Assembly (NCBI GenBank): GCA_965249725.1
Contig: CBDFMQ010000002.1
Coordinates: 2,048,001-2,112,000, forward strand
Direction of reading: 5' to 3'
Length of the DNA: 64,000 bases
Source: Longimicrobiales bacterium
GTDB taxonomy: Bacteria > Gemmatimonadota > Gemmatimonadetes > Longimicrobiales > Gaopeijiaceae
Shown here: positions 59,814-63,453 of the stretch, in pieces
Numbering within the stretch: position 1 is the first letter of the stretch
Layout of the letters: each line of letters opens with the position of its first letter
Translations under genes and position numbers: made by a program
The notes under the pieces: model-generated
Told to the model about the DNA's origin: nothing
What the model saw: only the letters and a program-made list of their open reading frames with translations
Database searches by the model: none

Positions 59814-60023
59814 TCAGAGCGAGAGCGGGGATCTACCAACCTGCCATCGCCTCCAAATCAGATAGACGGCAGGGATGACCACGAGGGTGAGAACGGTCGT
59901 ACTGATCATCCCCCCCACCATTGGGGCCGCGATGCGCTTCATCACGTCCGATCCAGCACCGTGTCCCCAGAGGATGGGCATGAGGCCCACCGTGATAGCC
60001 GTAACCGTCATGACGACGGGACG
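59814..60023 (-). pseudogene. cusA: 3' remnant of a CusA/CzcA heavy-metal RND permease
   Basis: RPVVMT...[42 protein letters not shown], the last two TMs of CusA; similarity stops near 60023. Confidence 0.85.
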
Positions 60024-60048
60024 TTGATAGGAATCGGACCGAAGATGC

Positions 60049-60080
60049 TTGACCTTGGAGTGTACTCCAGGCTTTAGTTT
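60049..60080 (+). promoter_or_regulatory. MerR-type (ZntR-like) promoter/operator
   Basis: -35 TTGACC, 20-bp spacer, -10 TAGTTT; dyad TGGAGT-GT-ACTCCA in the spacer. Confidence 0.85.
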
Positions 60081-60158
60081 ACGCTTATGGTCGAGCGAAG
60101 ACTCGGCCGGGGCGTATCGTTCGGACGTCCCCAACGCGGCGCAGCAAGGAGGAATCCG

Positions 60159-60338
60159 ATGAAACAGCAGGCCTACTCGCTTTGTCCGGAGTGCACGGCG
60201 TGTCCGGAGGTGACGTTTCTCGAGGACGGCAAGGTCAGCATTGGTGAGGCACCGAACCTCGTTACCCTGACGCGGGAGGAGTGGAACGTCCTGGTTCGCC
60301 TCGTGCGCTCCGGCATGGTCGCGGAGTCACATGGCTGA
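60159..60338 (+). CDS. 59-aa CxxCxxC protein, first gene of the metal operon
   Basis: [28 protein letters not shown]...; overlaps the next gene. Confidence 0.75.
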
Positions 60339-60705
60339 ATCCCGCGCCGCGGCTTCGTCCGCGCTGGTCGCGGCTTTCGGGACTCTCGTCTGCTGTGCTC
60401 TGCCGTCGCTCCTAGTCCTGCTCGGCTTTGGATCTACGGTCGCTGCGGCGGTCTCGGCTGCTCCCTGGCTCGTGGTTTTGTCTCAGAACAAGGCGTGGGT
60501 ATTCCTCGCGTCCGGTCTGTTGATCATCGGGAGTCGAGGGTACTCCGAGTACGTCGTGCCTCGCATCGTCCCGGAGGGGGCCACGTGTCCGCCCGCGCTC
60601 GGGCGGTGGACTCGCGCCATCTGGTGGACTTCCGTCGGGGTGTATGGTGTTGGATTCTTCGTCGCTTTCGCCCTCGGGCCCATCCTGATGAGGCTCGAAG
60701 GCTGA
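60331..60705 (+). CDS. MerT/MerF-like metal transport membrane protein
   Basis: TLVCCALP vicinal Cys in TM1, three TM helices, loop Cys (ATCP). Confidence 0.75.
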   Translation: MAESRAAASSALVAAFGTLVCCALPSLLVLLGFGSTVAAAVSAAPWLVVLSQNKAWVFLASGLLIIGSRGYSEYVVPRIVPEGATCPPALGRWTRAIWWTSVGVYGVGFFVAFALGPILMRLEG

Positions 60706-61562
60706 TGCCTCTTTCCGTCCTGAGGTGCCTTCTCGGTATGACCGCCGCCGCGGCGATCGTGGCGCCGCCCTTGTCCTCCCAGGGACACGGGCCAGTGTAC
60801 GGGCTCTCTACGCCGACGCTTGGGCGCGGCGGGTGGAGCCTCGACGTGGCGGGCATGGGACGGTTCATCGAGGGAGGTCGGATGGCGATGATCCGCCCCA
60901 TGCTCAGCTTCGGAGTAACCGAGGACCTCCAGGTATCGGTGTCGATTCCCGTCAGACTGGAACGCGATTCGGTGACTCCTGGGGTGCGGGCCTTTACAAG
61001 GATGCCAGCCTCTCAGGACGTCGAGATGATGGTGGGCTGGCGGTTGCAGAGACGGGGCACGGGTGTGGGTGCCCGACGAGAGACGACGGTCTGGTTGGCT
61101 GCAGACGTACCGACGGACGGGCGTCGCGAGGGACTCGAGACGGCACCCAGTCTCTTTGGCTCCATCGTCACCGGGTACGCTTCGCGTTCGGCCTACCTCT
61201 GGTTGGGAGGGGCCTACGAGCGCTCACTCACGGCCGGACTGGAACATGACCGTGCGGGGGACGTCGCGATGGGAAGCCTGGTCATCGGCTATCGACCGCC
61301 GTCGTTTCGCGGAGACTACCCATCTGCGGACTGGCGTGCCTTCATCGAAGTCGTGGGAGAGGCCGTACGGCGCGACCGGGTCGGAGGCGTCGAAGTGGCG
61401 GACAGCTGTGGCCGACAGCTATACGGCGCCCTCACCCTCCTCGGCCTCTACGGCTCCTGGGGACTGGCCGGCGGGCCGGCCTTCCCCCTATATCAGTCAC
61501 TGAACGGGAATCAATCGGACGAAGGCGTGCGCCTGGCTTTGAACGCGACGTTCTGGTTCTAA
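60705..61562 (+). CDS. Secreted, probably outer-membrane beta-barrel protein
   Basis: TGATG coupling; signal peptide; amphipathic strands; ends LALNATFWF. Confidence 0.65.
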   Translation: MPLSVLRCLLGMTAAAAIVAPPLSSQGHGPVYGLSTPTLGRGGWSLDVAGMGRFIEGGRMAMIRPMLSFGVTEDLQVSVSIPVRLERDSVTPGVRAFTRMPASQDVEMMVGWRLQRRGTGVGARRETTVWLAADVPTDGRREGLETAPSLFGSIVTGYASRSAYLWLGGAYERSLTAGLEHDRAGDVAMGSLVIGYRPPSFRGDYPSADWRAFIEVVGEAVRRDRVGGVEVADSCGRQLYGALTLLGLYGSWGLAGGPAFPLYQSLNGNQSDEGVRLALNATFWF

Positions 61563-61581
61563 CCCAAGGAGAGACTTGCTC

Positions 61582-62079
61582 ATGTACAAACCTATCCTTC
61601 TGGCACTCACTGCCGTTGCGCTGCTATCGGGAGCGGCGGAAGCCCAGCTTCGCTCAGTCGAGCAGTCGATCTATGGGATGGACTGAAGTGTCTGCGCCCA
61701 CGCCGTGAGCGTGGCAGTGAAGAAGCTCGACGGGGTCGAGAGTGCAGACGTCAGCCTGAACGAGGGTCGTGTCAGCGTACAGTTCTCTTCCGAGAACGGG
61801 GTGACAATCGACCAGCTTCGCCGAACGATCCGGGATCAGGGCTTCTCACCGAGGGACGCGATGCTGACCCTGTCGGCGGTGATCGAGATGCGTGACGGGG
61901 CACTCGTCGCGGTGGTTCCTGGCTCCGGAGCGGCCTACACGCTAACGGCCGAAGAGTCGATCCGCTCTCGGCTGACGAGCGCCACCGGTGGCACGGTCAT
62001 CGTCCGGGGACGCGTGGAGGCGGACGAGAACGATGAGACTCCCACCTCACTAGCCGTAACCCTTGTGGGTGGTGGGTGA
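61582..62079 (+). CDS. Secreted HMA/MerP-like probable selenoprotein (TGA at 61684-61686 read as Sec) with an extra C-terminal domain
   Basis: AAGGAG RBS; signal peptide MYKPILLALTAVALLSGAAEA; IYGMD-[TGA]-SVCAHAV in frame with KKLDGVESADVSL (HMA fold, GMxCxxC). Confidence 0.82.
61692..61717 (+). promoter_or_regulatory. Candidate SECIS hairpin for the HMA gene
   Basis: CCACGC-CGTGA-GCGTGG stem-loop extended by CTG/CAG; G at the second loop position; 17 nt between UGA and loop. Confidence 0.6.
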
Positions 62080-62095: not shown

Positions 62096-62491
62096 ATGAG
62101 AATCGGTGAGTTGGCTCGGCAGGCTGGGGTGACGCCCGATGCGCTTCGCTTTTACGAGCGCTCCGGGCTCATCTCACCGCCTCCTCGCACCCCGGGTGGA
62201 TACCGGAACTACGGGGCCGTCGTCCTTGAGGACCTGAGCTTCATTCGTAAGGGACAGGCCCTTGGCCTCCGCCTCGCAGAGATCCGTGAGGTGATGGCGA
62301 TGACGGCGGACGGGCAGGTGCCTTGCGCACATGTGCGCTCAGCGGTCGTGGCTCGGCTCGAGGAAGTGGAGCGCCGGATCTCCGAGCTTCGGGCGCTACG
62401 CACGGCGTTGAAGAGTGCGTTGACCCGTCTCGACACGACGGGTCTCTCGGCGCCGGGGTGTCGCTGCGCCGCGATCGAGGGGCTCGACTAG
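62096..62491 (+). CDS. MerR-family heavy-metal regulator (ZntR/CadR-like)
   Basis: MRIGELARQAGVTPDALRFYER HTH; Cys at the start of the dimerisation helix (VPCAHV); C-terminal CRC. Confidence 0.92.
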   Translation: MRIGELARQAGVTPDALRFYERSGLISPPPRTPGGYRNYGAVVLEDLSFIRKGQALGLRLAEIREVMAMTADGQVPCAHVRSAVVARLEEVERRISELRALRTALKSALTRLDTTGLSAPGCRCAAIEGLD

Positions 62492-62539: not shown

Positions 62540-62571
62540 TTGACCCTGTACTACGCCACAGGGTTTACTCT
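62540..62571 (+). promoter_or_regulatory. Second MerR-type promoter/operator (CadR/PbrR-like dyad)
   Basis: -35 TTGACC, 20-bp spacer, -10 TACTCT; dyad ACCCTGT-N8-ACAGGGT. Confidence 0.8.
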
Positions 62572-62576
62572 TGTAT

Positions 62577-63166
62577 ATGACCAAGACCGAAACGCTCACG
62601 ATCGGTCAGCTGGCGGCTTCGGCCGGTGTGGGACGCGAGACGATCCGGTACTACGAGCGGAAGAGCCTCCTCGAGGAGCCTCCGCGTTCGGCTGCTGGAT
62701 ACCGCCACTATCCTCCCGATGTCCCTCGGCGGCTCCGCTTCATCTGTCGCGCGCAGGAGTTGGGATTCACGCTGGCCGAGATCTCGGGCCTCCTCGATCT
62801 GCGCGTGGACGAAGTCTCCGCGTATGCCGCGGTGGAGACGAGGGCGCGCGAGAAGCTGGAGGTTGCTGTGAAGGAATCGATGAAGGCCACGGTATCGGGC
62901 GTCGGCGGTGTCTTGGCAGCGACAGGGTCCGCGCTGTGCTGCGCCGGACCGGTGGTGGCTGTGAGCTTGGGCGTTTCGGGTGCCGGACTGTCGGCTTTCG
63001 AGCCTTTCAGGCCCTACTTCCTCGGTGCGACCGCCGCCTTTCTCGCGACCGCGCCGAGGGGTTCGTCACGTTCGATACAACCATGACATCGGTGGCCGAG
63101 ATCGTAGCTGAGTTGAGACGGATGACGGCCTTCAGCGCGACCGAGCGACCGGATTCAGGAGGCTGA
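62577..63166 (+). pseudogene. Collapsed merR-merT-merP(HMA)-like cassette with two internal deletions
   Basis: MerR N-terminal part to about 62862, MerT N-half (ALCCAGP, FEPFRPYF) from GTG 62868 to about 63046, then an out-of-frame HMA tail (DRAEGFVTFD...) to 63166. Confidence 0.82.
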
Positions 63167-63168
63167 AG

Positions 63169-63453
63169 ATGAATACCCCACGCATCGAGCTGGTCTACTT
63201 CGAGGGCTGCCCGAACGCTTCGCAGGCAAGGGAGAACATTCGGGCCGCCGTTGAAGCCTCCGGAAGGCCGCTCGAGTGGTCCGAGTGGGACCTTATGGCG
63301 GAGTCAACGCCCGAAGACCTCCAGCGCTACGGTTCGCCCACAGTGTTGATCGACGGTCAGGATGTAACTGGAGAAGGCACCGGCGCGGTCGCGATGGCCT
63401 GCCGGGCCGACGGAGCCCCTTCGGTCGCCTTGATCGCAGAGAGACTACAGTAA
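63169..63453 (+). CDS. Thioredoxin-like protein of mer-type clusters
   Basis: AGGAGG RBS; IELVYFEGCPN, YGSPTVLIDG, MACR. Confidence 0.78.
   Translation: MNTPRIELVYFEGCPNASQARENIRAAVEASGRPLEWSEWDLMAESTPEDLQRYGSPTVLIDGQDVTGEGTGAVAMACRADGAPSVALIAERLQ

Follow-up and report, generated by a model that had tools for sequence, protein, structure and literature searches.

The window, that is the whole stretch of 64,000 nucleotides that was analysed, carries an intact gene whose in-frame UGA codon at position 61684 is, judging from the comparison of homologues, almost certainly read as selenocysteine (Sec). The predicted product has an HMA domain with Sec in the place of the first metal-binding Cys, followed by a second domain, and very probably binds metal in the periplasm. 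It belongs to a genuine selenoprotein family whose members are routinely truncated, and its kind (Sec-HMA) is known; compared with the accessible part of the 2026 catalogue and with NCBIfam, the architecture and a conserved, unnamed envelope operon are new. An earlier note on this DNA had recognised the UGA and overlooked both the second domain and the conserved operon with its barrel and MerT-like genes.

The UGA codon in the window and in homologues

The gene comprises the following features:

61566..61572, plus strand: AGGAGAG, ribosome-binding-site-like (from sequence)
61582..62079, plus strand: predicted Sec-HMA protein gene, ATG 61582, terminal TGA 62077-62079, 165 aa
61582..61644, plus strand: predicted signal peptide, 21 aa, ends AEA (by sequence inspection only)
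61645..61854, plus strand: HMA domain with the site GMD-U-SV-C (Pfam PF00403, AlphaFold2 model)
61684..61686, plus strand: in-frame TGA, predicted Sec35, context IYGMD*SVCAHAV
61698..61714, plus strand: bSECIS-type hairpin CCACGC-CGTGA-GCGTGG, 6 bp stem, 5-nt loop
61855..62076, plus strand: C-terminal beta domain, likely an OB fold, Cys-free (model, weak matches)

The frame 61582-62079 is open except for TGA 61684-61686 in G-M-D-*-S-V-C, giving a UxxC motif of the form U-S-V-C. The ORF caller begins the gene, as the earlier note had pointed out, at 61705, a GTG within the hairpin loop; upstream, also in agreement with the note, AGGAGAG and ATG 61582 precede an open frame with a signal-peptide-like N-terminus ending AEA/QL. 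Similar purine-rich stretches stand ahead of most homologous starts, and an open frame with a hydrophobic core was found upstream of the UGA in 51 of 53 TGA loci. The placement of the TGA at the first Cys of an HMA domain was borne out by Pfam, the PF00403 score being 48.6 bits at a threshold of 24.8 when U was read as C. An alternative base at 61684 was looked for: contigs from four other studies, among them a strain with 27 differences in 292 nt, had no other letter in codon 61684-61686 or in the hairpin, and all read TGA, none TGC.

The homologues came to 86 loci: besides the window itself, metagenomes supplied 75, a genome search within the family 3 and a search of the phylum 7; a broken same-genus copy (L027/L038), eight distant Cys-type HMA loci and two duplicates were left out. 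The aligned codon was TGA in 69 loci and TGC or TGT in 12, the latter of the type GMD-C-AP-C, while the remaining five had foreign DNA 5' of the site (three) or a contig end (two). The earlier note had made its reading depend on such an alignment; with redundancy collapsed, TGA was present in 54 of 66 distinct genes and Cys in the other 12, counts that overstate independence because the loci are related and partly redundant. TGA genes extended down to 32% identity, and above 42% all loci whose 5' end is intact had TGA. The codon of the second ligand was TGC or TGT in all 54 distinct TGA genes. A pN/pS of 0.15 before and 0.29 after the UGA (8 relatives) indicated purifying selection on both sides. 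When the neighbouring barrel gene was used as the anchor instead, 8 of 401 genomes were found, each with an HMA gene downstream of the barrel; the codon was TGA in seven and TGT in one, and three of these genomes were new.

In protein databases the family appears mainly in shortened form. All 18 matches in a search of 5.8 billion proteins start past the UGA. Among the best 150 protein representatives, CxxC was present in 6 and absent in 144, mostly through truncation, a ratio biased by a profile built from Sec-type sequences; two of the 144 read GMD-W-AVC. Gene callers thus cut most family copies past the UGA, and the signal peptide and the metal site are both lost. Complete homologues have mostly about 160-190 aa, and the family size was 505 clusters at 50% identity (E <= 1e-10), possibly including some other HMA proteins. 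A database protein, P0002, contains an internal duplication. The single-protein search of genome contigs gave one match only, a broken same-genus copy. Copies broken at the 5' end occur in L038, L045, L046 and L098, so that some lineages can do without the gene; a transposase-like ORF together with foreign genes has taken the place of the upstream operon in the same-genus genome (L038, 1-6001).

Trees were built by quick searches only. With the hairpin-coded residues included, the Sec forms made up one side of a branch (SH-aLRT 88); with these residues masked and three more genomes added, two changes were needed, and the long-branch Cys gene L130 stood apart from the other Cys forms. Sec and Cys forms therefore appear to cluster apart with one or two changes between them, and we draw no direction. 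L130 (genome G620) reads GMD-TGT-APCAHAV and is devoid of the conserved hairpin, in a genome with selA and tRNA-Sec; this Cys form is possibly a reversion.

Hairpin and selenocysteine machinery

The loop of the hairpin 61698-61714 lies 17 nt past the UGA and has G then U at loop positions 2-3; the folding energy is -8.7 kcal/mol. Its compatibility with bacterial SECIS models, claimed by the earlier note, holds for the bSECIS model in the accessible text of PMC13188914 (loop of 3-9 nt, stem of 4-16 bp, G in the first two loop positions, spacing of 16-37 nt, MFE <= -7.5), with which the hairpin agrees in all four constraints. By itself it lies within chance: folding z-scores ranged from +0.47 to -1.54 in this genome of 64% GC, windows of 80 and 100 nt take a different fold, and 56 TGA sites across the genome, most of them in non-coding frames, pass a similar filter. 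Since the z-scores were not significant and 56 sites passed, stability was dropped as a proof of Sec and conservation alone was used as hairpin evidence.

When a hairpin had to reach at least -5 kcal/mol in stability and to carry a G at loop position 1 or 2, it was present in 52 of 54 distinct TGA genes and in 1 of 12 Cys genes. In codons +4 to +9 the third position is almost invariant (GCC 54/54, CAC 49/49, GCC 52/53, GTG 54/54, CGC 36/36, GTG 50/52), while the fourfold sites flanking this block vary freely. Against the 8 relatives, the hairpin codons had no synonymous change in 39 sites, at a pS of 0.58 before and 0.56 after them. In 51 distinct rows, 98.7% of the hairpin cells were paired, and two pairs had double changes, compensatory from C-G to U-A and from A-U to U-G; the covariation score was reached by none of 500 shuffles, although relatedness can inflate it. 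The hairpin exceeds chance by its conservation, not by its stability. A pseudogene or an error cannot account for frozen synonymous sites together with compensatory pairs.

Absence of tRNA-Sec or SelB had been named in the earlier note as a reason to give up the reading. The genome has a tRNA-Sec (68 bits, cut-off 47) with the anticodon UCA, and SelA, SelB and SelD are over their cut-offs; the SelD gene has an in-frame TGA itself. TGA also ends genes in this genome, the Sec-HMA gene included. A genome-wide TGA scan found further genes with in-frame TGA in known selenoprotein motifs, several with similar short hairpins, which by these motifs we take to be FdhA-, Prx-, DsbA- and AhpD-like. Such likely selenoprotein sites in the window's own genome (G000) lie at C2:162199, C3:141249, C3:986020 and C3:2223709, with a further AhpD-like one on the minus strand of C3; one of these sites reads HC-TGA-DWP. 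Among relatives, selA, selB or tRNA-Sec was over cut-off in 12 of 12 TGA-carrying genomes. Co-occurrence with selA was rejected as support, as it does not discriminate at a base rate of 318 in 401 sampled phylum genomes, about four fifths, a tally that takes in one genome marked unpublished (G341). The phylum name had no match in the accessible text of the catalogue and method papers searched for it, nor in that of the 2016 survey.

There is hardly any room left for a UGA that is a true stop (in a pseudogene, or ahead of a cytoplasmic protein of 124 aa that starts at GTG 61705), that stems from a sequencing error or that is read as Trp, and this reading is already contradicted. TGC and TGA differ by one change and the adjacent cassette carries two deletions; its decay, a caveat of the earlier note, is real but concerns another unit, which has a promoter-like site of its own at 62540. 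A stop or an error is opposed by TGA at the same codon in the 54 distinct genes and by purifying selection on both sides, and an error also by the agreement of the contigs of four studies. The two database proteins with GMD-W-AVC would suit Trp; TGA however ends genes in this genome, the UCA tRNA-Sec is present, and the Trp calls are probably best explained as annotation under another code. Very little probability falls to a UGA serving mainly as a selenium-dependent gate, by which low selenium would stop translation after 34 codons and so tune the operon or the downstream regulator. The hairpin sequence is unusually frozen and a MerR-family gene begins 16 nt after the HMA gene in the window, in line with such a gate, but the place of the UGA is precisely that of the metal-binding Cys, and in most loci the regulator lies upstream, hence polarity on it is not conserved.

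Protein domains and the conserved operon

The AlphaFold2 model of the Sec-HMA protein, made with 141 sequences, reached a pLDDT of 95.4 and assigns mature residues 1-72 to the HMA domain. Fold searches matched this predicted part to CopZ, MerP and Ccc2a at rmsd 1.1-2.1; the beta-alpha-beta-beta-alpha-beta fold and the GMxCxxC loop were both found, with Z up to 12.1 and an rmsd of 1.4 over 72 residues. Copper chaperones were the best matches in sequence and in fold. The remainder of the protein was modelled as five strands and one helix in an order that fits OB, a five-stranded barrel whose helix stands between strands 3 and 4. Sequence matches were to DUF5818 (13 of 54 members) and tRNA_anti-codon OB (2 of 54), and several OB proteins were among the weak fold matches; searches with the whole model were filled by the HMA domain. 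For the C-terminal domain, neither PDB sequence searches (CcmE at E 0.35) nor the ESM Atlas (best 0.80) gave a significant match. The model thus suggests a domain that is likely OB-like; it has no invariant metal ligand.

The genes and sites around it on the plus strand are:

60049..60080, plus strand: MerR-family-type promoter/operator, TTGACC, dyad CCTTGGAG-TGTA-CTCCAGG, then TAGTTT
60159..60338, plus strand: small CPxCxxCP protein, 59 aa (CPECTACP), optional operon member, no family named
60331..60705, plus strand: MerT-like protein of the inner membrane, 124 aa, with a Cys-Cys pair and one further Cys, all invariant
60705..61562, plus strand: outer-membrane beta-barrel, predicted 12-stranded, COG4313/FapF-like (model, Foldseek)
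62096..62491, plus strand: MerR-family regulator, alpha5 Cys as in divalent-metal sensors, CxC at the C-terminus

The barrel gene lies directly upstream of the HMA gene in all 58 TGA loci and all 11 Cys loci that were informative, that is in the 69 loci with 500 nt or more upstream. Its product has a signal peptide, an invariant His at mature position 3 and a C-terminal WF. The barrel model (pLDDT 86.9) matched FapF and Pput2725 at E about 1e-8 and TM 0.65-0.73 (Foldseek matches 4rl8 and 5o68), whereas PF13557 matched the sequence of 2 of 38 members, at best with E 1.3e-4. The predicted barrel resembles the COG4313/SphA-type channels (Pput2725, 4rl8; FapF, 5o65) in its 12 strands and in the N-terminal segment before the barrel, at 11-14% identity. 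Known members of that type are associated with hydrophobic substrates or amyloid export, in contrast to the partner barrel with its metal operons and invariant N-terminal His. The mature N-terminus x-x-His-Gly-Pro is present in 38 of 38 barrels (60780-60794 in the window, and homologues) and resembles an ATCUN site for Cu or Ni. An N-terminal Gln could cyclise, which would block an ATCUN-like site. Plasmid records had no match to the barrel.

The MerT-like gene stands usually before the barrel gene or after the HMA gene. NCBIfam matches of its product were weak and far below cut-off (of 26 members, 14 matched MerT_CopZ_Se and 5 MerT). In L029 this gene has an internal stop, which was considered as a second Sec codon and rejected; the stop is TAG, and the row was removed from alignment A4. 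Homologues of the CPxCxxCP protein were found upstream in L028, L055, L060, L068, L079, L080 and L089.

Of 29 distinct loci, 16 have upstream an element similar to the promoter at 60049, where shuffled sequences gave 0.23 on average; genome-wide, 17 such sites were counted. A scan for consensus sigma-70 promoters found none, the MerR-type site at 60049 being spaced in a non-standard way, and this layout is presumably the mark of MerR-family promoters. The regulator that starts 16 nt past the HMA gene has a ZntR-like best match below cut-off. The alpha5 Cys was present in 18 of 21 adjacent MerR-family regulators at TGA loci and in 0 of 4 at Cys loci, rows that are few and related; at Cys loci CueR was best-scoring for 3 of 4, and no regulator of either kind was over an NCBIfam cut-off. 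An alpha5 Cys is described for divalent sensors and Ser for Cu(I) sensors in the accessible part of PMC11672702, which also calls sensor selectivity hard to read from sequence and urges caution. Cys-form operons, which tend to adjoin CueR-like regulators, may have a role with Cu(I)/Ag(I).

Function, known systems and neighbouring genes

The neighbours of the module were scanned in 114 ORFs of 205 called in 25 loci and included MerA, MerT, MerB, RND efflux sets, a P-type ATPase, CDF, ars and many unrelated genes. Three of the 25 loci had MerA over cut-off: in L052 and L053 it immediately precedes the module on the same strand, and in L043, where MerT and MerB domains are present as well, it lies beside the module. 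Genes for RND, membrane-fusion and outer-membrane efflux proteins lie beside the module in L049, L054, L102 and L105. With RND, P-type ATPase, CDF and ars genes among the neighbours, the metal is therefore not pinned. Ergothioneine/selenoneine-type genes (histidine methyltransferase, FGE-sulfatase/DinB) lie near the locus in L053 (4880-7176), and a gene for an MbnB/TglH/ChrH enzyme near the Cys-form locus in L097 (1181-2176).

We lean slightly towards a metal-induced relay from the barrel through the Sec-HMA carrier and the MerT-like transporter to MerA or another sink, in which we infer both the metal and the direction of transport. The carrier would hand a toxic soft metal from the outer-membrane barrel to the MerT-like transporter, as MerP does for MerT. 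On metal entry, the MerR-family sensor would activate the promoter at 60049, SelB-tRNA-Sec bound to the hairpin would insert Sec35, and the protein would be exported and cleaved after AEA. The selenolate-thiolate pair, presumably ionised in the periplasm, might bind Hg(II) or another soft divalent ion (Cd, Pb, Zn) tighter than a dithiol would. The OB-like domain could dock onto a partner, and the metal would pass to the Cys pair of the MerT-like protein, to be reduced by MerA where present and elsewhere exported or stored. Evidence against the relay comes from the genome itself, in which no MerA was over cut-off (best 228.8 against 600 bits), so that the end-point for mercury is missing here, and from the characterised COG4313 barrels, linked in the accessible text of PMC4493636 to hydrophobic molecules, not ions.

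The same missing MerA would suit a periplasmic sink or efflux helper, in which the selenoprotein captures metal that comes in through the barrel, either to store it or to pass it on to RND systems in the manner of CusF. CusF has an OB fold, and the C-terminal domain is OB-like; efflux genes lie by the module in the four loci named above, and in the window the module borders on a CusA/AcrB-like fragment. We consider this unlikely: the fixed partners are the barrel and the MerT-like protein, not RND genes, and the C-terminal domain is devoid of an invariant metal ligand. The third mature residue of the barrel, an invariant His (38/38), the copper chaperones as best matches and a dedicated outer-membrane channel, which suits scavenging, would fit high-affinity import of needed Cu, Ni or Zn, the x-x-His end catching the ion and the Sec-HMA protein chaperoning it inward. 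Such import is, however, quite improbable, as the MerR-type promoter implies that metal in excess is the inducer, which is established for MerR, CueR and ZntR, and the neighbours are resistance genes. A role as periplasmic thiol/selenol oxidoreductase on an HMA scaffold, keeping the Cys of the MerT-like protein or further thiols of the periplasm reduced, has only a small chance. The fold is that of HMA, not thioredoxin, the GMDxxxC loop is a canonical metal site and the operon promoter is MerR-type, even though a thioredoxin-like DF-family gene lies nearby at 63169 and no redox motif is commoner than UxxC in the accessible part of the catalogue (PMC13188914).

Exported and HMA-type selenoproteins have already been listed (SaoB/SaoC/SaoX, NF041115 and the GOS 'MerP'), therefore export alone is not novel, which qualifies the earlier note's remark that an exported selenoprotein is uncommon. 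MerP (TIGR02052; PDB 1osd, 1afi) shares with the window protein the signal peptide, the HMA fold, a GMxCxxC-type site, a MerT-like partner and a MerR-type promoter, and in two loci the module lies behind merA. The window protein differs by Sec as first ligand, by the fixed outer-membrane barrel partner and by a conserved extra domain of about 75 aa, giving 165 aa against a MerP model length of 92 with a single HMA; it missed the TIGR02052 cut-off (39 against 92.55 bits). The cation-transporting ATPase E1-E2 selenoprotein likewise has a heavy-metal transport context and a UxxC, which we take to lie in its HMA domain; unlike it, the window protein is small, exported and stand-alone, without ATPase or membrane domains. 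NF041115, a UxxU metal-binding (seleno)protein and the second-best NCBIfam match, is HMA-like with Sec at the metal site. The window protein has one Sec, not two, and scored 46.9 bits at a cut-off of 95; the NF041115 model covers 74 positions without the C-terminal domain, and its best E among 141 members of the window family was 1e-14. In the MerT/CopZ fusion-like selenoprotein NF045683, MerT-like and Sec-HMA parts also belong to one system, whereas in the window the genes are separate with the barrel gene between them (17 against 375 bits). In NCBIfam, the window protein thus fails the cut-offs and architectures of the HMA selenoprotein models.

The 2008 GOS table names a 'Mercuric transport protein MerP' selenoprotein with two sequences, conceivably of the window family, and no motif in its accessible part (PMC2398784). 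Table 1 of PMC13188914, with 119 families, includes mercuric transport protein, E1-E2 ATPase (UxxC) and NF041115 (UxxU); in the accessible part of that table no exported UxxC HMA protein was found that stands alone and has a second domain or a partner barrel. Nor was the same architecture found in the accessible parts of PMC9312934, PMC5029168, PMC12013277, PMC1976440, PMC13326102 and bioRxiv 2022.07.06.499078. Literature searches, outside Haft and Tolstoy 2025, BSepDB Table S2 and the GOS supplement, did not turn up the Sec-HMA/barrel architecture either.

A 2026 review states that the roles of selenoproteins in heavy-metal detoxification need study, and the family bears on the role of selenium as a direct ligand of toxic metals in bacterial proteins. 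The family is small, soluble and confidently modelled; natural Cys counterparts exist in the same operon, and therefore affinity and selectivity of Sec versus Cys are directly measurable. It also links an unnamed outer-membrane barrel family to metal resistance. As a tentative and rather doubtful extension of the relay, the channel, the Sec-HMA-OB carrier and the MerT-like protein could form an unrecognised, widespread system that supplies the outer-membrane entry step absent from the classical mer model, with a Cys-to-Sec switch at the first ligand of the carrier. If this were true, the switch would have accompanied a change of control from a Cu(I)-type to an Hg(II)/divalent-type, and nature would offer a matched pair for probing the effect of selenium on metal selectivity at an HMA site.

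The surroundings of the operon gave further observations. On the minus strand, 59814-60134 adjoins the promoter and encodes an AcrB/CusA-type RND C-terminal fragment, the remnant of an efflux gene. Downstream, a second MerR cassette occupies 62540-63166. Compared with L038 (6393-8990), the window is without about 1.57 kb, holding a regulator end and a pyridine-nucleotide disulfide oxidoreductase-like ORF, and about 430 nt, holding a merT end and the start of a MerP-like gene; the comparison also covers L026, L043 and L045. One run spans the cassette in one piece with no joint, therefore the deletions are not an assembly artefact. The lost piece contained a second candidate selenoprotein site, G(M/L)T-TGA-DGC, found in four relatives. 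The gene at 63169-63453 encodes a thioredoxin-like protein that matched NF049942, 'DF family (seleno)protein', with 48.7 at a cut-off of 70, and has no in-frame TGA here. At 62664 and 62824 the window has A and all four other runs have G; the G at 62824 restores the alpha5 Cys codon of the regulator in those other strains.
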